Below the pieces are notes generated by a model. That model did not search any database and was not told the origin of the DNA. It was given only the letters and a program-made list of their open reading frames with translations. From Candidatus Hydrogenedentota bacterium (GTDB taxonomy: Bacteria > Hydrogenedentota > Hydrogenedentia > Hydrogenedentales > CAITNO01): 64,000 nt of DNA. Positions 5,783-22,687 of this stretch are shown one piece after another. Position 1 is the stretch's first letter. Each line of letters starts with the position of its first letter. A program made the translations under genes and the position numbers. The stretch covers positions 26,785 to 90,784 of the forward strand of contig JAAYBR010000143.1 in NCBI GenBank assembly GCA_012730045.1, written 5' to 3'.

Positions 5783-7075
5783 ATGGTGAAAAAAAGCAGC
5801 GTGAGCCGCCGCGCCTTTCTGGCCGGGGCGGCGGGCGCGGCGGCGGGAAGCCTCCTTCCCCGGACCGCCCGCGCCACACAGGCGGCCCGCAGGGTCCCGC
5901 CGAGTGAGAAGGTCCGCGTCGCCGTCATCGGCACGGGCGGCATGGGGTCGCGCCACATCGAGGCGCTGATCAGCAACCCGAACTGCGACCTGGTGGCCCT
6001 GTGCGACGCGGCCAAGGGCCGCTACATGCCCGTGCTGGACAACGTCGAGAAGCTGTCCGGCCGGCGGCCGGACGGTTATCAGGACTTCCAGCAGGTGCTG
6101 GACCGGCAGGACATAGACGCCGTCTTTGTCGTCACGCCGGACCACTGGCACCCCCTGCTCACGATTCTGGCGTGCCAGGCGGGCAAGGACGTTTACGTCG
6201 AGAAACCCGTCTGTCCGACCGTGCGGGAGGGGCGCGCCATGGTGGAGGCCGCCCGCCGCTACGGGCGCGTGGTGCAGGTGGGCACGCAGCAGCGCTCCAT
6301 GCCCGTGTTCCAGAAGGCCATTGACATCGTCCAGAGCGGCCGCCTGGGCACGATCACCCACGCGGGCGCCTGGGTCGGCGTGAACGAGTGGCAGACGGGG
6401 GACACGCCCGCCGAGCCGCCCAAGGGGTTTGACTGGGACAGGTGGCTGGGGCCCGCACCCTGGGTGCCCTGGTCCCCCGAGCGCATGAGCTGGATGGGCT
6501 GGCACGACTACGCGCGCGGCGGCCAGCTCACCAACTGGGGCGTCCACCTGATGGACATCGTCCAGTGGGGCATCCGCCAGGACCGGCCGCTGAGCGTGCA
6601 GGCCCTGGGCGGCAGCTATCTCGGGAACGCCGGGCAGGACAACTACAACACCATTGAGGCGATCCTGGAGTATCCCGGGTGCACGGTGACCTGGGAGCAG
6701 CGCCACAGCAACGCCAACGCGAACAAGGGGTACGGCATCACGTTCTCCGGCACGCAGGGCAGGCTGTTCGTGGACCGGGGCAGTTTCGTGGTGGAGCCCG
6801 AGGGCGTCGGAATCAAGGAGTGGGTGGGCGAGCCCGAGAAGAGCTGGGCCTACCCCCCGCATCACGACAACTTCTTCGAGTGCATCAAGACGCGCCAGCG
6901 GCCCGCCGCGGACATCGAGCAGGCCTTCCGCACCACCACCGCCGTCCTGCTCGCGGGCATATCCCTCAAGGTGGGAAAGAAACTGCACTGGGACGGCGAA
7001 ACGGAAACCTTCCTCAACGACGAGCAGGCCAACAGGCACCTCACGCGGGACTACCGCGCGCCGTGGCACCTGTGA
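5783..7075 (+). CDS. Gfo/Idh/MocA family oxidoreductase, Tat-exported
   Basis: ATG at 5783 (GGAG upstream). Twin-arginine signal SRRAFLAGAAGAAAGS. NAD-binding motif VAVIGTGGMGSRH and the Gfo/Idh/MocA signature HVYVEKP. Confidence 0.75.
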   Translation: MVKKSSVSRRAFLAGAAGAAAGSLLPRTARATQAARRVPPSEKVRVAVIGTGGMGSRHIEALISNPNCDLVALCDAAKGRYMPVLDNVEKLSGRRPDGYQDFQQVLDRQDIDAVFVVTPDHWHPLLTILACQAGKDVYVEKPVCPTVREGRAMVEAARRYGRVVQVGTQQRSMPVFQKAIDIVQSGRLGTITHAGAWVGVNEWQTGDTPAEPPKGFDWDRWLGPAPWVPWSPERMSWMGWHDYARGGQLTNWGVHLMDIVQWGIRQDRPLSVQALGGSYLGNAGQDNYNTIEAILEYPGCTVTWEQRHSNANANKGYGITFSGTQGRLFVDRGSFVVEPEGVGIKEWVGEPEKSWAYPPHHDNFFECIKTRQRPAADIEQAFRTTTAVLLAGISLKVGKKLHWDGETETFLNDEQANRHLTRDYRAPWHL

Positions 7076-15929: not shown

Positions 15930-17639
15930 ATGACTTACGCGGATTCCCGGATATTCTCGCGGGGGCTTCGGTGTTTCCTTGCGGTTGCGGCGGTTGTTGC
16001 GGCCGGAGGGGGGGGCGCAGAGGCCGCGGCGGCCCCTCCCCAGGACGCGGCAGCCATCCAAAGCGGCATTGCCGGGTTTGTGGCCGTCGTGGAGACGTCC
16101 TCCCCCGCCAAGCGTCTCGACTACAGGGAATTGACCGTCGCGCTGTTCCTCCGGGCGCATGGCCGCGCGCCCTCCCCTGTCGAGTTCTTCATGATCCGGG
16201 AGACCGCCGAGGCGTTTTCCGCCACGCCGGAGGAGGTGCTTTCGCTGGTGCTGCGGGAAGACCAGCCCGGTCCGACGTGGGACCAGTGCCGCCGGTTTCT
16301 GCAACGTTCCGGGGAGAAAGAGTTCCAGCCTTCTTCGGACGCGGCCGCCGTGGCGGCGGCGCTCGCCGCCACTCCGCTGGAGGAGTTGTTTGCGGAAATG
16401 GATGCGCTGGACGGGGCCAAAAGCGGCGCTGCTCCCGCCGTTCCTGTGGCTCCCCAGACCACCCCCGCCGATCCGGCGGACTATCCCACCTATTTCGGGT
16501 ACTTCCACGACCACAGCGAGCTGTCCCTGGACGCCGAGGGGGATCCGTACCAGGCGTACCGGACGGCGCGCGACCTGGCGGAATTGGATTTCTACTCCCT
16601 GGCCGACCATGCCGAGTACCTGATTCTCTGGCCCTGGGACGACAAGTGGGACACCCTTCGCGATGCCGCGAATGCGGCCTACCAGCCCCATCAGTTTGCG
16701 GCCCTGTGGGGCTTCGAGTGGTCCAATCCCCTGCTTGGCCACATCACCGTGGTGAACAGCGACGGCTTCATCAACGCGGTGAGCACATACGGGCTGGGAA
16801 GCTTCTACCGGTGGATCTCCAGGCAGGCGGATTCGTTTGCCCTCTTCAACCATCCGGGCGACTTTGACCACACAGGCCGGGAGTTCCGCCGTTTCCGGCT
16901 GTCTCCCGCCGGCGTGCCCAACCTTGTCGGCATGGAGCTCTGGAACAGGAGCTATGGATTTGACCAGTACTATTACGCGGGAAGCTGGGAAAGCGACACG
17001 CCCTTCTTTGACCTCGCCCTTCAGAAAGGCTGGCGGATTTCCCCGGGGGGCGGTCAGGACAACCACAGCCGGGCCTGGGGGCTGCGCAACGACTTCCGGA
17101 TGGGCGTGCAGGCGCGGGAGCTGACCCGGGACGGCATTGCGGAGGCCTGTCTGGCGCGGCGCTTCTACAGCACGGAGGACAAGAACCTGCTGCTGGATTT
17201 CCGGTCCTCCGGGCATCCGATGGGGTCCCGGCTGAAAGGGCTGCCCCGGGTTTTCACCGTGAGCCTCGGCGACCGCGGCGGCGACGGGTTCGAGCGGGTC
17301 CGTCTCTTCCGCAACGGCGAATTGGCGCAGGACGCGGCCGTGTCCGGGAACGCGGTGGACGTGGTGTTTGAGGACCCCGACGGCGCGGGGAACGACTACT
17401 ACTATGTGATCGTGACGCAGACCGACGACGGCGACCGCAACGGCCGCAACGATGAGGCCGTTTCCGCGCCGATCTGGTTTGAGGACGGCCCGGAGGACGA
17501 ACCCCGCACCCCCGCCTGCGGCACCCTGTCCGCAAACGCCGCCGCCCGGGGCGGCTGGGGAAGCCTTGCCGTCTGCGTGACGGCCCTTGTGCTGCTGGTC
17601 TGGCTGCGCCGCCGTCCCCTTCCGGGATTCATGAGGTAG
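15930..17639 (+). CDS. PHP-domain metal-dependent phosphoesterase, membrane-anchored/secreted
   Basis: Track ORF 15825..17639 trimmed to MTYADSRIFS (AAAGGA upstream). N-terminal hydrophobic segment. PHP motifs YFHDHSELSLD, LADHAEY, FEWSNPLLGH and FNHPGD. C-terminal TM helix (LAVCVTALVLLVWL). Confidence 0.5.
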   Translation: MTYADSRIFSRGLRCFLAVAAVVAAGGGGAEAAAAPPQDAAAIQSGIAGFVAVVETSSPAKRLDYRELTVALFLRAHGRAPSPVEFFMIRETAEAFSATPEEVLSLVLREDQPGPTWDQCRRFLQRSGEKEFQPSSDAAAVAAALAATPLEELFAEMDALDGAKSGAAPAVPVAPQTTPADPADYPTYFGYFHDHSELSLDAEGDPYQAYRTARDLAELDFYSLADHAEYLILWPWDDKWDTLRDAANAAYQPHQFAALWGFEWSNPLLGHITVVNSDGFINAVSTYGLGSFYRWISRQADSFALFNHPGDFDHTGREFRRFRLSPAGVPNLVGMELWNRSYGFDQYYYAGSWESDTPFFDLALQKGWRISPGGGQDNHSRAWGLRNDFRMGVQARELTRDGIAEACLARRFYSTEDKNLLLDFRSSGHPMGSRLKGLPRVFTVSLGDRGGDGFERVRLFRNGELAQDAAVSGNAVDVVFEDPDGAGNDYYYVIVTQTDDGDRNGRNDEAVSAPIWFEDGPEDEPRTPACGTLSANAAARGGWGSLAVCVTALVLLVWLRRRPLPGFMR

Positions 17640-17664
17640 TTCGGTTGCGCATCGCCGGGCCCGT

Positions 17665-18138
17665 TCAGTCCGCCCCGGCCATTTTGGCGAGCAGCGCCTC
17701 CAGCGCCCGCGAGGTCGCCCAGGCCTGGGTTTTGCGCACAACGGGAAAAACCACCGGCAGCGGGAGAATGGTGAGCGCGCAGACCCACAGCAGCTCTGGC
17801 CGTTTGTTGACTGTGATGAAGACCACCGAAAGCGCGACCGTTTGCACCACGGCGATCACGCCGATGACGACAAGCAGGAACTTCAGGACGGAGCGCAGGT
17901 TCCCGAACTCGGCGTTCAGAACGAGCTCCTGGCCGATGACCGTGACACTTCCCCGCGAGACCATGAGCAGGGGCTGCTTGTTGGTCTTCCAGAAGGACAC
18001 GGGATTCTCAAAGAACACCTGGTTTCCCGTCGGCGGGAGCGCCTGATACCCCGCGTCGGCCAGCAGCCGCCCCGCGCGCGCCAGTGCCGCGTCCCGGTCC
18101 CCCGTGAACGCCGCCCGGCCTTCATAATCGTCCGCCAT
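17665..18138 (-). CDS. small two-TM membrane protein, hypothetical
   Basis: 157 aa. AGGAG upstream of the ATG. Overlaps the upstream RHH gene by 17 nt. Two hydrophobic helices sit in the C-terminal half. No known domain. Confidence 0.5.
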
Positions 18139-18322
18139 CTTCCTCAGGCTCCTTTGCCTCCGGTTCGGTCCTCTTCCGCTCCCTCCCGCGCTTTCGCACG
18201 GCGTCGCGGAGCAGATACTCGATCTGGCCGTTGAGGCTGCGGAGTTCGTCCGCGGCCCAGCGGTTCAGGTCTTCGAGCAGCTCCGGCGGCAGCCGCAGCA
18301 GGAAGGACTTTTTCTCGGCCAC
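18122..18322 (-). CDS. Arc-type ribbon-helix-helix DNA-binding protein
   Basis: 66 aa. [39 protein letters not shown] matches the Arc/MetJ-like RHH pattern (beta-strand RLP, then two helices). It has a basic then acidic C-terminal tail. GTG start. Confidence 0.65.
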
Positions 18323-18337
18323 GTTGACGCCCCCGTC

Positions 18338-19213
18338 CTACTGGTACAGCGTGCCCGCGTTCACCACGGGCCGGGTGGACTCGTGGCTGCACAGCACCAC
18401 CAGAAGGTTGCTGACCATCGCTGCCTTCCGCTCGTCGTCCAGCGGAAAACGCTTTGACTCCTCCAGTTTGTCCAGCGCCATCTCCACCATGCCCACGGCG
18501 CCCTCCACGATGCGGGCGCGCGCCGCCACCACGGCCTCCGCCTGCTGGCGCTGGAGCATGGCCCCCGCGATCTCCGGCGCGTAGGCCAGATGGGCGAGCC
18601 GGCTCTCCTCCACCACCACCCCCGCCGGGGCCACCCGCTCCTGCACCTCCTGCTGGAGCGCTTTCGAGACCTCGTCCGTGCTGCCGCGCAGCGAAATCTC
18701 CTCCGTGGCGTGGAAGTCGTCGTAGGGGTAGGCCATCGCCATGTGCCGCAGCGCCGCCTCGCTCTGGACGGCGACGTAGTTCTCAAAATGGTCCACGTCG
18801 AAAATGGCCTTGGCCGCGTCTGCCACCCGCCACACCATGACCGCCGCGATCTCGATCGGGTTCCCGCGCAGGTCGTTCACCTTGATCGTCGCCCCGTTCA
18901 GGTTGCGGCGGCGCAGGGACACCTTGCGCTTGAGGTAAAACGGGTTCGCCCAGTGGAACCCGCTCTCGCGCACCGTGCCCATGTATTTCCCGAACAGGAT
19001 GAGCGCGGCGGCCTCGTTCGGCTGGAGGGTGAAGAAGCCCCCCGCACAGACCACCCATACCGTGCCGAGAAGGGCGAGCACGACAACGACCGGCACGGCC
19101 TCGTTGGCGGCCCCCCAGACGATTCCCGAGGCGATCAGGACGCCTGTTGTGAAGAGGAGAAAGAGCATCATCCACCCGTTGGCGACAGTCCGCGGCACAT
19201 CCCTGGTAACCAT
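18338..19213 (-). CDS. SPFH/band-7 (stomatin/HflC-like) membrane protein
   Basis: Track ORF 18338..19237 trimmed to the ATG at 19213 (AAAGGAG 8 nt upstream). N-terminal TM helix, then an SPFH domain and a C-terminal coiled coil ([18 protein letters not shown]). Confidence 0.8.
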
Positions 19214-19243
19214 GTCCTGGTCTCCTTTCAAAACCATATCATT

Positions 19244-19272
19244 ATGATATCATCTCCGGAGACAGAAGTCAA
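19244..19272 (-). promoter_or_regulatory. sigma70-type promoter of the SPFH operon (-35 TTGACT, 17 nt, -10 TATCAT)
   Basis: Read on the minus strand: TTGACTtctgtctccggagatgaTATCAT. It lies in a locally AT-rich patch. The predicted transcription start is near 19237, just upstream of the SD and the ATG at 19213. The palindrome TGATATCA is embedded. Confidence 0.45.
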
Positions 19273-19307
19273 CCCCTGTTTTTCACCGCGGGTTGCCGGA
19301 TCCCCCC

Positions 19308-20915
19308 TCAGGCCAGCGAGTTCAGATACTCCTCCAGACGGGTGTATCCGTCCGGGCCGGTCTCCGCGCCGTCGGCGGGGTTGGCGGGGTCGAGGCCGTG
19401 GGTGCGCTCCCAGTCGTCCGGCATGCCGTCGTGGTCGGTGTCCGGGGGCGCGGGAAGGCTGTTCAGTTCGGGCCAGCCGCCGACAGCGGCCTGGGAGTCT
19501 ATGATTCCCTTTCCCCCGCCCTCGTAGGTCTCCCCGAATTTCGCGGTGCCGGTGCGCACCTCGTGGACGATGCGGGTGTCCACGGCGTCCCGCCGCAGGG
19601 AGCACCCCGCCTGCCGCAGCACCGCCTCGAAGGCGTCCTCCGCAGACTGTGTTTCCACGGGGGCCACGACGTAGGGGGTGGTGACGCGGAGGGTTGCCTC
19701 GGTGGCTTCGCCGTCGGGGGCGAAATGGACGCCGCCGTTCCAGTTGTCGCGGGTGATCTTCGGGAAGCCCCAGACGAAGTTGCCGTCGCAGTACATCTTT
19801 CCGCGCGGGTCCTTCTGGAGGAAGATGCGTCCGCGCACCTCCCTGTCCGTGGCGGGGCCGTGTTTGTAGTAGTTGTTGATCCAGTTGCGCGGCCACATCT
19901 CGCCGCCGTAGGCGCTGTTGAACCCCCAGTTGTAGATGACGTTGTTGCGCATGTCCATGAGCCCGGACGCCTCGTTGCCCGAGGCGCGGGGGTTCCGGCT
20001 GGAGTGGTGCGCGAGGAGGTTGTGGTGCCACGAGCCGCCCGGGCCGCCCCACAGGCCGCCGTAGCCGTGCTTCCCCTTCTTGTGTATCGAGTCGGTGAGG
20101 CTTTCGGTCACCATGCACCACTGCACCGTGGCGTTGGCCCCCTTGTTGATGGAGAGCGTCTCGTCCACCCCCCAGCTCACGGAGCAGTGGTCCACCAGGA
20201 GATGGTCCCCCTCCCCGCCGAAAGCGTCCTGCTCCTTCTTGGTCTCGTCGCCCGGACGGAACCGCATATACCGCACAATCAGATGCTGGGTGTTGAAACT
20301 GACCTGGTAGTCCTTCACGCAGATGCCGTCGCCCGGGGCGGTCTGGCCCGCAATGGTCAGAAAGGGGTTCCTGATCTTGATCTGGGACGCCAGGGCGATG
20401 TTTCCCGAGACACGGAAGACGACGGTCCGCGGCCCCTCCGCCTCGCAGGCCTCCCGGAAACTGCCGGGGCCGCTGTCGCCCAGATGGGTCACCTCAAATA
20501 CCCTTCCGCCGCGCCCGCCGATCGTGTACTTGCCGAAACCCTCGGCCCCCGGAAACGCCGGGACGCGGTCCGGACGGAAACGGGACAGCACGAGAAACGG
20601 CGCGTGGTCCTGGTAGGCCGTGTCGCAGAGCCATCCCCCGGGCAGCACGATGCGGTCAAAGCGTCCGGTCACGGATTCCACGCCCTCTCCGAACACGGCA
20701 ACGGAGGTGTTCTCGTGCGGCTCAATGCGTCCGGAAAAGGAAACCGCGAGCGTTCCAGAAAGGGCCCATCGTCCCGAGGTGACGGTCTCCCCCGCCGTTC
20801 CGTCGGTGATCACGAAGGTTCTTCCGTCCGCCGGAAGGGGCTCCTGGGCCGCGCAGGTTCCGGCGGCCAGCAGAAGGGAGAAAACCGCCGGGAAACAAGA
20901 GGAAAACCGGTGCAT
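19308..20915 (-). CDS. secreted pectate-lyase-like right-handed beta-helix protein (PL1-like) with C-terminal Ca-binding/dockerin-like tail
   Basis: Track ORF 19308..22022 trimmed to MHRFSSCFPAVFSLLLAAGTCAAQ (signal peptide; AAGGAG upstream). Motifs LLVDHCSVSWGVDE and HHNLLAHHSSRNPR resemble the vWiDH and RxPxxR blocks of pectate lyases. The C-terminus DTDHDGMPDDWERTHGLDP is an EF-hand/dockerin-like segment. Confidence 0.55.
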   Translation of the reverse strand: MHRFSSCFPAVFSLLLAAGTCAAQEPLPADGRTFVITDGTAGETVTSGRWALSGTLAVSFSGRIEPHENTSVAVFGEGVESVTGRFDRIVLPGGWLCDTAYQDHAPFLVLSRFRPDRVPAFPGAEGFGKYTIGGRGGRVFEVTHLGDSGPGSFREACEAEGPRTVVFRVSGNIALASQIKIRNPFLTIAGQTAPGDGICVKDYQVSFNTQHLIVRYMRFRPGDETKKEQDAFGGEGDHLLVDHCSVSWGVDETLSINKGANATVQWCMVTESLTDSIHKKGKHGYGGLWGGPGGSWHHNLLAHHSSRNPRASGNEASGLMDMRNNVIYNWGFNSAYGGEMWPRNWINNYYKHGPATDREVRGRIFLQKDPRGKMYCDGNFVWGFPKITRDNWNGGVHFAPDGEATEATLRVTTPYVVAPVETQSAEDAFEAVLRQAGCSLRRDAVDTRIVHEVRTGTAKFGETYEGGGKGIIDSQAAVGGWPELNSLPAPPDTDHDGMPDDWERTHGLDPANPADGAETGPDGYTRLEEYLNSLA

Positions 20916-21067
20916 GGGGCGCGCTCCTTGCGCCGGCCTGTCCTTGCGCCGGCCGCATTTTCCGCCAGTCTGAACCGCCTTCCCGGCGCGTGTCAACCCC
21001 CGGGGCGCGGGCGGCGTTGTTCCAGCAGACGCGAAAGCAAGATAGCCCAAAGCCCTTTCCTGTCTAT

Positions 21068-21129
21068 GGAACGTGGACGAAGTTCCTGCCTGTCCTCCCC
21101 CTCCCGTCCACGTTCCTCTTTTTTTGTCC
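21068..21129 (+). terminator. orphan plus-strand intrinsic-terminator-like hairpin (12-bp stem + T9)
   Basis: GGAACGTGGACG - 25 nt - CGTCCACGTTCC followed by TCTTTTTTTGTCC. There is no plus-strand CDS upstream. The loop is long for a canonical terminator. Confidence 0.35.
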
Positions 21130-21169
21130 GCGCGTGTTTTCCGGAGGACGGAGGACGGTGTCAGAACAG

Positions 21170-21400
21170 CCCGCGCAGAACAGGCATGCCCCAACGGGGC
21201 GGCCGAAATTGCGGCGGGGAGTGCCCGCCGGCCTTGGGGAAACGCGCGGCCACGGTCGTTCTTCGCGGGCTCCCGCGCGGGCAGGCCCACGCGAAGAAAG
21301 GCGGCAGCAAGCCACCGCACTCCAAGGCGCTGCGCGCTGTGCGGATCCGGGGCCGCGGGGGGCTGGACGTCATGGACAGGCAAGACACCCCCCGCGCGCT
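21170..21400 (+). repeat. dispersed structured intergenic repeat, copy C (3'-truncated)
   Basis: It matches copy B from CATGCCCCAACGGGGCGGCCGAAATT through ...CGGATCCGGGGCCGCGG. It lies between the gspF stop and the pectate lyase start. Confidence 0.55.
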
Positions 21401-21472
21401 TCCCTGCCCGTGCCGTCTCCATGGGATTCGGTTGGCCGCCAACCCCCGGCGCCGCGAGTTCCGGGTTTTGGC

Positions 21473-22687
21473 CTAGGCCCCAATGGTGGAGCTGAGGGTG
21501 AGCATGGGCAGGAGCATGGCGATGACGAGGAAGCCGACGACGACGCCCATGACCACGATGAGGAGGGGCTCGAAGAGGGCGGCCATGGCCTTGACGGCGC
21601 GGTCCACCTCGATGTCGTAGGCGTCGGCGACGCGCTTGGCGACGGCGCCCACGCGGCCGCTCTCCTCGCCGACGGCGAACATGCTCACGACCATGGGGGT
21701 GAAGAACAGGCGCTTGCGGAGGCACTCGCTGAGGCTTTCGCCCTCGGTGATGCCGATGTGGATCTGGCTGACCTCGTCGCGGATGAGGCGGTTGGTCATG
21801 GTGTCGGCGGTGATCTTGATGGACGTGAGGATGGGGACGCCGTTGTCCATGAGGGTGCCGAGGGTGCGGGCGAACTTGGCCATCTCGTACTTGACGATGA
21901 CGGTTCGGATGACGGGAACGCGCAGAAGGAAGGTGTCCATCTGCCGCCGGCCGGTGTCGGTGCGGACATGGCGCACCACGGCGGTGCCCAGGACGAAGAG
22001 GACGATCAGGACGGCCCACCACCAGGTGCCCATGAAGTCGCAGAAGCCCATGACCATGCGGGTGGGCAGGGGAAGTTCGGCGTTGAACTCCTCGAAAATG
22101 GTGACAAACTTGGGGAACACGAAGGAGACGAGGATGAAGATGGCGATGGAGCCGATGGACAGCAGGAAGGCCGGGTAGATCATGGCGGAGGTGGCCTTGC
22201 CGCGCAGCTCCTCCTCCTGCTCGCCGAAGGCGCAGATGCGCCAGAGCACCTCCTCCAGCATGCCGCCGGTTTCCCCCGCGCGGACCAGGTTGCTGTACAT
22301 GGCGGGGAAGAGGTCGGGGTGCCGGTCCATGGCGTCGGCGAGGCTGTTGCCCTTCTGGACGTCGTCGCGGAGCTGGTCAATGACCTTGGCCAGTTTGGGG
22401 TTTTCGGTCTGCTCGACCAGGGTGCGCAGGGCGCGGGTGATCATCATGCCGGACTCGCACAGGTTGGCGAGCTGGCGCAGGAAGAGGTTGCGGTCCTTCA
22501 GGCGGATGCGGGACAGGGCGTCGCGGAGGGAGTCCTTCGCCTGCTTCTCGCGGAACTCCTCCACGCGGAGGGGGAAGAAGCCCATGTCCCGCAGGCGGGA
22601 GATGGCGGCGCGCTGGTTCTCGGCCTCGACCATGCCCGTGACCGGCGCGCCGGGGCCCTTTTTCGCCTCATACTGGAACTGGGGCAT
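21473..22687 (-). CDS. gspF: type II secretion system / type IV pilus inner-membrane platform protein GspF/PilC
   Basis: 404 aa. Two GspF repeats with three TM helices. The 5' end overlaps the gspE stop by 20 nt. Confidence 0.85.
   Translation of the reverse strand: MPQFQYEAKKGPGAPVTGMVEAENQRAAISRLRDMGFFPLRVEEFREKQAKDSLRDALSRIRLKDRNLFLRQLANLCESGMMITRALRTLVEQTENPKLAKVIDQLRDDVQKGNSLADAMDRHPDLFPAMYSNLVRAGETGGMLEEVLWRICAFGEQEEELRGKATSAMIYPAFLLSIGSIAIFILVSFVFPKFVTIFEEFNAELPLPTRMVMGFCDFMGTWWWAVLIVLFVLGTAVVRHVRTDTGRRQMDTFLLRVPVIRTVIVKYEMAKFARTLGTLMDNGVPILTSIKITADTMTNRLIRDEVSQIHIGITEGESLSECLRKRLFFTPMVVSMFAVGEESGRVGAVAKRVADAYDIEVDRAVKAMAALFEPLLIVVMGVVVGFLVIAMLLPMLTLSSTIGA

Follow-up and report, generated by a model that had tools for sequence, protein, structure and literature searches.

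Bacterial SPFH proteins are, to our knowledge, mostly without a known function and without a known regulator or partner other than NfeD and FtsH. The SPFH-NfeD operons, such as QmcA/YbbK-YbbJ of E. coli, YuaF-FloT of B. subtilis, and PH1510-PH1511 of Pyrococcus, combine an SPFH scaffold gene with a small partner in a tight arrangement. Among the ribbon-helix-helix (RHH) proteins, P22 Arc occupies subsites about 11 bp apart in the 21-bp arc operator, acting as a dimer of dimers. SPFH subfamilies have been delimited with operon partners taken as defining features, and no NfeD homolog was reported for subfamilies 3, 4, and 6-12 (Hinderhofer et al. 2009, PMC2636767). In the copG-repB operon of pMV158, a small RHH protein is co-transcribed with the gene that it controls, is bound over its own promoter, and keeps RNA polymerase off (PMC2724298). 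Membrane-stress modules in which a membrane-associated scaffold is tied to small membrane partner proteins or to the control of transcription are represented by PspA-PspF and by the B. subtilis pspA-ydjGHI (SamGHI) SPFH system (PMC8581546).

The locus described here is situated on the minus strand of the window, that is, the whole 64-kb stretch of Hydrogenedentota DNA that was analyzed, and consists of genes encoding an SPFH protein, an Arc-type RHH protein, and a 157-aa membrane protein. It is similar to the SPFH-NfeD operons in that a scaffold gene is accompanied by a small partner in a tight operon, and a small membrane protein is also encoded, but the conserved partner is a predicted DNA-binding RHH protein and the NfeD domain is missing. 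Like copG-repB, the locus has a small RHH gene beside the gene that it would control and a putative site over its own promoter, whereas CopG, a plasmid-borne protein, is encoded by the first gene of its operon and has a replication initiator under its control. In our locus, the RHH gene comes second and the cargo is a membrane scaffold.

Gene content of the locus

The ORF calls reproduced the three minus-strand genes, their coordinates, and the 17-nt overlap reported in the preliminary description of this DNA. The first gene (18338..19213) encodes a 291-aa SPFH/Band-7 protein that matches Pfam PF01145 over residues 70-242 (E-value 5.5e-24; 85.6 bits against a cut-off of 23.6). The ORF has two candidate starts (19237/19213-18338). 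The start at 19213, which had been proposed originally, is confirmed by the homologs, which are 291 aa long and align from residue 1, and by the Shine-Dalgarno sequence GGAG located ahead of it at 19225-19222; the other ATG, at 19237, falls within the putative operator, near the expected transcription start. The protein has an N-terminal two-helix membrane hairpin (residues ~13-36 and 40-62), the SPFH domain, and a long C-terminal helix. The hairpin helices (pLDDT ~88-90) are the sole confident parts of the AF2 model, which also contains the long helix at residues 213-253; this model was built from a 27-sequence alignment and is poor (mean pLDDT 57), hence it was not used for a fold search. 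Among proteins of solved structure, HflK is the nearest by sequence, with a weak E-value of 5e-4. Arg residues are present at the N-terminus, and we infer that the SPFH domain faces the cytoplasm. Homologs of the protein form more than 8000 protein clusters, and its subfamily is present in at least 578 species genomes.

The second gene (18122..18322), starting with GTG, encodes a 66-aa Arc-family RHH protein that matches both the RHH_5 (7.3e-8; 32.5 bits, cut-off 26) and Arc (2.4e-5; 24.5 bits, cut-off 20.4) families of Pfam. Together with the Band_7 match, these above-threshold matches agree with the family assignments made initially for the two proteins. The best solved relatives of the RHH protein are the P22 Arc chains, with 30% identity over the whole fold. 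The strand FLLRL is aligned with FNLRW of Arc, including the beta-strand Arg, and the helix-B N-cap RSLN is aligned with RSVN (motif RS(V/L)N). In the family alignment, R10, R28, S29, and N31 are invariant among 79 RHH homologs, K5, Q33, and E35 are at 99%, and the surface residues of helix A are well kept (W22, 92%; A23, 95%; D25, 78%). The conserved core is formed by residues 1-48; the remaining tail of about 18 aa is short, variable, and of low complexity, being charged, acidic, or proline-rich without conservation across the family. One of the RHH homologs is named "HicB family antitoxin" in RefSeq.

The third gene (17665..18138) encodes the 157-aa membrane protein, and its ATG lies inside the RHH gene, the two genes sharing 17 nt here and 4-11 nt in related loci. 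According to a confident AF2 model (pLDDT 93.5), an N-terminal alpha/beta domain (residues ~1-78) is followed by two long TM helices forming a TM hairpin. This order is the reverse of that in NfeD, where N-terminal TM helices precede a C-terminal OB barrel. No match to Pfam, NCBIfam, or PADLOC families was found for the protein or for 58 of its relatives. In particular, NfeD (PF01957) was matched neither by the two downstream proteins at E<=1 nor by the 58 family members at E<=0.01. Thus, the absence of an NfeD partner holds, and the predicted fold of the 157-aa protein is not an OB barrel. An NfeD/YqiJ-type identity of this protein, the possibility raised against the original reading of the locus, was found neither in Pfam, nor among the 58 relatives, nor in the predicted fold, and it is ruled out by the Pfam results and by the modeled combination of an alpha/beta domain and a TM hairpin. 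The N-terminal ~75 residues superpose on the KA1 domains of Chk1, MARK, and AMPK-alpha (Foldseek probability 1.0, target TM 0.48), the superposition being weak (E-value 0.014, identity 7-17%). Unlike KA1, the domain is fused to a TM hairpin, and the similarity is a fold resemblance only, not family membership.

Pairing of SPFH and RHH genes

Species-representative genomes scanned with the SPFH alignment yielded 80 loci from many phyla. In 76 of them, the SPFH gene is followed, in the same orientation, by a gene for a homolog of the RHH protein (phmmer E-values from 1e-11 to 1e-26). The two genes are mostly directly adjacent, separated by at most 30 nt in about half of the loci and by ~1.7 kb in two. 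Of the four loci without an RHH gene, three are on contigs that end too early. The paired loci come from Hydrogenedentota, Planctomycetota, Bacillota, Krumholzibacteriia, and Acidobacteriota, among others, and annotated pairs are found in cultivated Deinococcus, Bacillus thuringiensis, and Parabacteroides distasonis. The accessions of the pair are WP_000660677.1 / WP_001085171.1 for B. cereus/thuringiensis and WP_211744627.1 / WP_005854106.1 for P. distasonis. Pairwise identities of the SPFH and RHH proteins co-vary, with a Mantel r of 0.57 that was reached in none of 999 permutations. Less similar SPFH homologs, for example the one of Listeria with ~51% identity, occur without an RHH gene; therefore the pairing is a trait of this SPFH subfamily and not a universal one. 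The pair was not described in any paper retrieved by literature searches that combined SPFH with RHH, Arc, or CopG.

The gene following the RHH gene differs among lineages. The 157-aa protein gene follows the pair mainly in Hydrogenedentota-type loci, a GPP34 gene takes the third position in Clostridia-type Bacillota, and genes for Topo VI-A, MurJ, or an ATPase are found there elsewhere. A convergent gene comes next in B. thuringiensis and P. distasonis. Conversely, five of the eight sampled members of the 157-aa family are preceded by an RHH gene, and the other three have neither RHH nor SPFH neighbors, standing beside fucosidase, SRP54, or PQ-loop genes. The conserved unit is the SPFH gene with the RHH gene, and the third gene varies by lineage. 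According to the neighborhood analysis suggested in the preliminary description, the trio is not a conserved unit. A two-gene cassette that is widespread and here extended by a lineage-specific third gene is a better description of the locus than a three-gene operon. The 157-aa protein may serve the SPFH scaffold as an accessory or client specific to this lineage, rather than being a toxin.

Promoter and putative operator

The operon is preceded by the -35 hexamer TTGACT (19267..19272) and, after a 17-bp spacer, the -10 hexamer TATCAT (19249-19244) with an upstream TG; TTGAC(A/T) and the 17-bp spacing are also observed in related loci. In the promoter scan this was the only sigma-70-like site in region 17000-20000, compared to 0.2 in shuffled sequences, which confirms the promoter noted earlier. 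The extended -10 element TGaTATCAT (19244..19252) coincides with the first putative operator subsite, TGATATCA (19252-19245). The second putative subsite, TGATATGG (19234..19241), is situated 11 bp past the first one, and after another 11 bp there is a degenerate sequence, TGAAAGGA (19223..19230), overlapping the Shine-Dalgarno sequence. Since related loci have TGATAGGAGG or TGATAGAAGG at this phase, TGAAAGGA is a candidate third subsite in this genome. The bipartite motif TGATATCNNNNTGATAT occurs at one locus in the window (reported on both strands), against 0.07 expected by chance.

This arrangement is widely conserved. Two or three TGATATC-like subsites, phased by 11 bp and overlapping the -10 element, were found upstream of the SPFH gene in 78 of 82 loci, with the consensus (A/G)TGATATCATTnTGATATCA. 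A bipartite site scoring above 10 bits is present in 78 of the 82 upstream regions and in 0.8% of shuffled regions. Distances between GATA cores over the 82 loci equal 11 bp in 71 cases and 22 bp in 23 cases, and every other spacing occurs at most twice. The phased site is also found at the Deinococcus, Bacillus, and Parabacteroides loci and at L094. In 45 of the 78 loci, a subsite serves as the -10 hexamer, located 16-18 bp downstream of a -35-like hexamer. The phasing strengthens the earlier suggestion that the TGATATCA region is a plausible operator for the RHH protein, and the phased repeats as a whole are likely to be its binding site, although they could in principle serve another factor.

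The match to the Arc family and the 11-bp subsites agree with the geometry of the Arc operator. Both P22 Arc with its Pant operator and the system considered here combine the RHH fold with short subsites spaced by 11 bp over the core promoter, the operator in our case being a predicted one. Several differences are nevertheless seen. The putative repressor is chromosomal and would regulate an SPFH membrane-protein operon; there are often three subsites instead of two; the subsites are direct 11-bp repeats of the near-palindromic TGATATCA core; and the RHH protein carries an additional variable tail, acidic or proline-rich.

The leader region was also considered as a possible RNA element. No Rfam family was matched by it, and a small hairpin over the Shine-Dalgarno sequence is confined to close relatives, by which this possibility was ruled out.

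Proposed regulation of the cassette and alternative explanations

We suggest that the locus is probably a self-contained, negatively autoregulated SPFH membrane-scaffold cassette. According to this model, a strong sigma-70 promoter would drive the genes of the SPFH protein, anchored through its two-helix hairpin, the Arc-type RHH protein, and the 157-aa membrane protein, with translational coupling of the third gene in this Hydrogenedentota lineage. Two or three TGATATC-like subsites, one helical turn (11 bp) apart, would be occupied by RHH dimers in a cooperative manner. As the subsites span the region from the extended -10 element through the transcription start to the ribosome-binding site, the bound RHH protein would occlude RNA polymerase, and the dosage of the SPFH protein, predicted to make large oligomeric assemblies, would be capped. 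The phased subsites over the -10 element in 78 of 82 loci and their Arc-operator-like geometry make negative autoregulation the best-supported mechanism. The conservation of W22, A23, and D25 in helix A hints at an extra interaction beyond simple autorepression. The cassette would provide a simple handle on the control of membrane-scaffold dosage, and experiments are feasible, as the pair is carried by culturable bacteria from the Bacillus cereus group, Parabacteroides, and Deinococcus.

A different role of the pair would be that of a membrane-state sensor, in which the SPFH assembly captures or releases the RHH protein, so that transcription follows the occupancy of the scaffold or the stress on the membrane, and the third-position proteins are clients supplied in step with the scaffold. 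The analogy here is the partner switch of PspA-PspF, although neither PspA, PspF, nor YdjG/H has any sequence relation to the proteins of this locus, and the link between scaffold and regulator is genomic only. One particular RHH protein is tied to one SPFH subfamily across phyla, which is tighter than usual for a local repressor; both proteins are predicted to face the cytoplasm, given the SPFH hairpin and its N-terminal Arg residues; the helix-A residues are highly kept; and the third genes of two lineages encode domain types that bind membrane lipids in eukaryotes, namely the weakly KA1-like domain and GPP34/GOLPH3. However, contact between the SPFH and RHH proteins is purely conjectural, the RHH tail, where a docking peptide would most readily be sought, lacks conservation, and dimer-dimer cooperativity on DNA can account for the conservation of helix A. 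We consider such a sensor unlikely. The more specific proposal of a cross-phylum membrane-state circuit, where the SPFH protein sequesters and releases the Arc-type repressor at the cytoplasmic face of the membrane and the 157-aa and GPP34/GOLPH3-like proteins are its lipid-binding clients, is quite unlikely as well; if true, a defined transcription factor would for the first time be known as the partner of a bacterial SPFH protein.

The preliminary description had likened the RHH and 157-aa genes to an antitoxin/toxin pair, that is, a type II toxin-antitoxin or stress module whose RHH protein neutralizes the overlapping 157-aa protein and represses the operon. The gene order and overlap fit such a module, as do the RefSeq label of the single homolog and the RHH genes preceding five of the eight sampled 157-aa family members. 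Nevertheless, the constant partner of the RHH protein is the SPFH protein, which it follows in 76 of 80 genomes whatever gene, if any, comes next: the RHH gene faces a convergent gene in B. thuringiensis and P. distasonis, the third position is taken by GPP34, Topo VI-A, MurJ, or ATPase genes in other lineages, and three of the eight sampled 157-aa family members stand alone. In addition, the RHH protein has no conserved C-terminal toxin-binding extension, and searches with the 157-aa protein found neither a toxin family nor a PADLOC model. Because the RHH gene is conserved beside SPFH while the downstream genes are variable or absent, the pair was rejected as a toxin-antitoxin candidate, and we regard this function as very improbable. 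Labels like "HicB family antitoxin" for RHH homologs are misleading and can be corrected by the SPFH-RHH pairing. An SPFH-based anti-phage or abortive-infection membrane system, following the phage-defense context mentioned initially, is scarcely credible. An AAA_15/AAA_21 ATPase gene is located downstream at one locus (L044), and a few phage-labeled records hold SPFH homologs; but none of the seven phage matches is annotated, these being unverified low-coverage contigs, and the inspected record (H19/L091) is an UNVERIFIED_ORG contig without annotated features. PADLOC gave no meaningful match for the three proteins, the sole one being a partial match of the RHH protein to a Cas3 model (12 bits, E-value 0.018), and the neighborhoods are of the housekeeping type, differing by lineage. 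The Listeria copy lacks the RHH gene. On these grounds, the locus was dismissed as a candidate defense system.

Finally, membrane proteins of ~155 aa related to the third gene product make up an unnamed family, which is a frequent addition to the SPFH-RHH cassette. An exhaustive search identified 77 representatives of this family, and a word-indexed search with the family profile yielded few extra members in comparison.

An SPFH-RHH pair with a variable third gene

The cassette comprises three co-directional ORFs on the minus strand, placed as in the preliminary description: the SPFH gene (19213-18338), encoding a 291-aa protein with a Band_7 domain (Pfam, 5.5e-24); the RHH gene (18322-18122, GTG start), whose 66-aa product matches both RHH_5 (7.3e-8) and Arc (2.4e-5) beyond the curated Pfam cut-offs; and a third ORF (18138-17665, ATG start) encoding 157 aa and matching no Pfam family. 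The third ORF, from its ATG onward, shares 17 nt with the 3' end of the RHH gene. Searches of the three proteins against NCBIfam and PADLOC yielded nothing beyond the Pfam assignments. Judged by the names of near-identical homologs, the source organism belongs to Hydrogenedentota. The longest possible SPFH ORF begins at 19237, at an ATG that falls within the promoter/operator region. Since SPFH homologs are 291 aa long and alignable from 19213, and GGAG lies 8 nt upstream of this position, the start originally proposed at 19213 is correct.

The conserved unit is the SPFH gene together with the RHH gene. Homologs of the SPFH protein fall into more than 8000 clusters. A scan queried with an alignment of 27 SPFH homologs, in which each species was represented by a single genome, detected relatives in at least 578 genomes. 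The best 80 of these loci, retrieved for neighbourhood analysis, come from Hydrogenedentota, Planctomycetota, Bacillota, Krumholzibacteriia, Latescibacteria, Acidobacteriota, and Verrucomicrobiota, with a few bins labeled Nitrospirota, Alphaproteobacteria, or Thermoleophilia. When the window RHH was compared by phmmer with all ORFs of the 80 loci, a same-strand homolog was found downstream of SPFH in 76. It directly adjoins SPFH in most loci, with a gap of at most 30 nt in about half; the gap is 340-485 nt in a few, and two Planctomycetota loci carry an insertion of ~1.7 kb (L056, 5903-7697; L069, 5903-7613). Three of the four RHH-less loci are contigs ending within ~300 nt of the SPFH stop, and only L072 (2399-3256) genuinely lacks the RHH gene in ample downstream sequence. 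Across 79 loci the pairwise identities among SPFH proteins correlate with those among RHH proteins (Mantel r 0.57; 0 of 999 permutations as high), which fits inheritance of the two genes as a unit. In cultivated bacteria SPFH is likewise accompanied by an annotated RHH gene, named a 65-aa "hypothetical protein" in Deinococcus sp. NW-56, a "HicB family antitoxin" in Bacillus thuringiensis, and an "Arc family DNA-binding protein" in Parabacteroides distasonis; in the latter two genomes the following gene is convergent, and thus the cassette has two genes. A more distant SPFH homolog on a Listeria-derived contig (~51% identity) has no RHH gene, so the pairing is a trait of this SPFH subfamily and not of all SPFH proteins.

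The third position is far less constant. With a word-indexed search only nine proteins closely similar to the 157-aa protein came up, each encoded on a syntenic contig of a close relative; an exhaustive profile search gave 77 representatives at 50% clustering, which are full-length (~150-170 aa) and align well with each other. None of 58 members scanned against Pfam had a meaningful match. Among the 80 SPFH loci the family profile detected only the Hydrogenedentota-type L004, L005, L007, L008, and L029; the family is also present in the related loci L001-L003 and in the window. We inspected the contig neighbourhoods of eight divergent members: four (P0134, P0138, P0149, and P0192) clearly follow an RHH and/or Band_7 gene, P0141 probably does so, and the remaining three are located after a fucosidase gene, SRP54, and a PQ-loop gene, with neither RHH nor SPFH nearby. 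In nine Bacillota loci the third gene, often overlapping the RHH stop, encodes a GPP34/GOLPH3-family protein; elsewhere the position is occupied by Topo VI-A, MurJ, or an AAA_15/21 ATPase, or is empty. Thus the third gene has been added to a two-gene core in a lineage-specific manner, and RHH is not its specific partner; of the three-gene combination initially singled out, the SPFH-RHH pair recurs but the third gene differs by lineage.

The AlphaFold model of the 157-aa protein is confident (pLDDT 93.5, pTM 0.83), and shows an N-terminal alpha/beta domain (~residues 1-78) ahead of a predicted membrane hairpin of two long helices. This architecture differs from that of NfeD, in agreement with the earlier remark that no NfeD partner is encoded here. 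In a Foldseek search against the PDB, the N-terminal domain found only weak matches, to KA1 domains (E 0.014, TM 0.48 on target).

Promoter and putative operator

The promoter recognized in the preliminary description, TTGACT-17-TATCAT, has a TG making an extended -10 and is the sole sigma-70-like site in 17000-20000 (0.2 in shuffles). Alignment of 110-130 nt 5' of SPFH start codons revealed two or three TGATATC(A)-like copies in nearly all regions. For GATA-to-GATA distances of up to 30 nt, a value of exactly 11 bp was recorded 71 times and one of 22 bp 23 times, every other distance being seen at most twice. An exact GATA-N7-GATA occurs in 53 of 82 upstream regions (shuffle mean, 0.26), and with the position weight matrix of the bipartite site, consensus (A/G)TGATATCATTnTGATATCA, 78 of the 82 exceed 10 bits, compared with 0.8% of shuffled regions. 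The element is also seen ahead of the genes in Deinococcus, Bacillus, and Parabacteroides and in a metagenomic three-gene locus; no second occurrence was found elsewhere in the 64-kb window, and an Rfam search of the promoter/operator region matched no family. In L072 the operator is marginal (best site 10.1 bits at a threshold of 10, 91 nt upstream), which fits joint loss of RHH and operator.

In the window, subsite 1, TGATATCA (19252-19245, minus strand), provides the extended -10 (TGaTATCAT), subsite 2, TGATATGG (19241-19234, minus), lies approximately at the transcription start, and the degenerate subsite 3, TGAAAGGA (19230-19223, minus), overlaps the Shine-Dalgarno sequence. The TGATATCA palindrome reported previously is therefore real, but is one member of a larger direct-repeat array. 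In 45 of 78 loci the -10 hexamer likewise belongs to a subsite, with a -35-like hexamer 16-18 bp upstream.

The 5' leader (19236-19218, minus) could form a 7-bp hairpin, UGGUUUU/GAGACCA, burying the Shine-Dalgarno GGAG (-8.3 kcal/mol, z -3.5); the sequence GGTTTTGAAAGGAGACC is kept only among the closest Hydrogenedentota relatives.

Regulation of the cassette and alternative readings

The closest solved relatives of the window RHH are P22 Arc chains, with weak scores; it aligns with Arc across the whole fold at 30% identity, its beta-strand FLLRL corresponding to FNLRW and its RSLN to RSVN. Comparison of 79 homologs shows strong conservation over residues 1-48: R10, R28, S29, and N31 are invariant, and conservation reaches 99% for K5, Q33, and E35, 97% for L8, and 92% for W22. 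The C-terminal ~18 residues form a variable acidic/proline-rich tail. Arc binds as a dimer of dimers to a 21-bp operator with subsites ~11 bp apart, and the 11-bp phasing upstream of SPFH reproduces this spacing.

We consider it probable that the cassette is a self-repressed SPFH scaffold. RHH would bind the subsites over the core promoter and occlude it, resulting in negative autoregulation; the Arc-family protein, the helical-turn phasing of the subsites, their overlap with the core promoter, and the strict co-occurrence of protein and site all argue for such repression. The SPFH domain is predicted to face the cytoplasm, given two N-terminal hydrophobic helices, a basic N-terminus, and no signal peptide. 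The 157-aa protein, for which a cytoplasmic domain and a transmembrane hairpin are predicted, could be a scaffold accessory or client.

The unusually tight SPFH-RHH coupling and the conserved helix-A surface of RHH are compatible with sequestration or release of RHH by the SPFH assembly, which would make the cassette a sensor of membrane state; we regard this variant as rather unlikely. The antitoxin/toxin interpretation offered at first is poorly supported and highly improbable: the third gene is lineage-specific and RHH is not specifically tied to it. The B. thuringiensis protein WP_001085171.1 (L089, 3222-3386), named "toxin-antitoxin system HicB family antitoxin" in RefSeq, has no adjacent toxin gene. 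This name is probably a misleading automatic label for an SPFH-linked Arc-type protein. Slimmer still are the chances of a role in defence; the phage-defence context suggested for SPFH operons is poorly supported here, PADLOC having added nothing.

Such a self-repressed cassette would be built from elements of known kinds, namely a scaffold of the SPFH type, an Arc-type autorepressor, and a promoter-overlapping operator. Prokaryotic SPFH proteins form 12 subfamilies, of which only SPFH1, 2, and 5 have NfeD partners, the others being reported without an NfeD homolog (Hinderhofer et al. 2009, PMC2636767), and NfeD proteins are the sole partners mentioned in a survey, dated 2026, of SPFH proteins in Pseudomonas (PMC13086221). 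Our full-text literature search combining SPFH/Band 7 with ribbon-helix-helix/Arc/CopG found no description of the pair. Apparently undescribed so far are the fixed SPFH-RHH association, the operator shared across phyla, and the family of the 157-aa protein.

Additional observations on neighbouring genes

The GPP34/GOLPH3 genes (PF05719; ~220 aa, E 3e-26 to 3e-30 for two tested) lie immediately 3' of SPFH-RHH, at ~6050-6810 in each of L036, L040, L048, L053, L054, L057, L064, L076, and L082, and their carriers include Pseudobacteroides cellulosolvens. In the closest relatives (L001, 1-4831) a formate-tetrahydrofolate ligase (FTHFS) gene separates the T2SS-F gene from the 539-aa gene located upstream of SPFH. 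The corresponding part of the window (19308-22687) lacks FTHFS and has just ~540 nt of intergenic DNA there (20930-21473). The 269-aa P0009 from an NCBI MAG (L003, 4601-5410) is a frameshift artefact fusing RHH with the 157-aa gene; the neighbouring FTHFS and T2SSF genes are also fragmented, which suggests a low-quality assembly. Finally, one Hydrogenedentes genome has two tandem paralogs of the 157-aa gene after RHH (L005, 1826-2419 and 2447-3232), and the second of these, as well as the single copy in L004 (2699-3568), has ~100 aa of extra C-terminal region made of Gly/Ala-rich hydrophobic repeats (GGFAVGGISVGGGAFGVIAVGG...).
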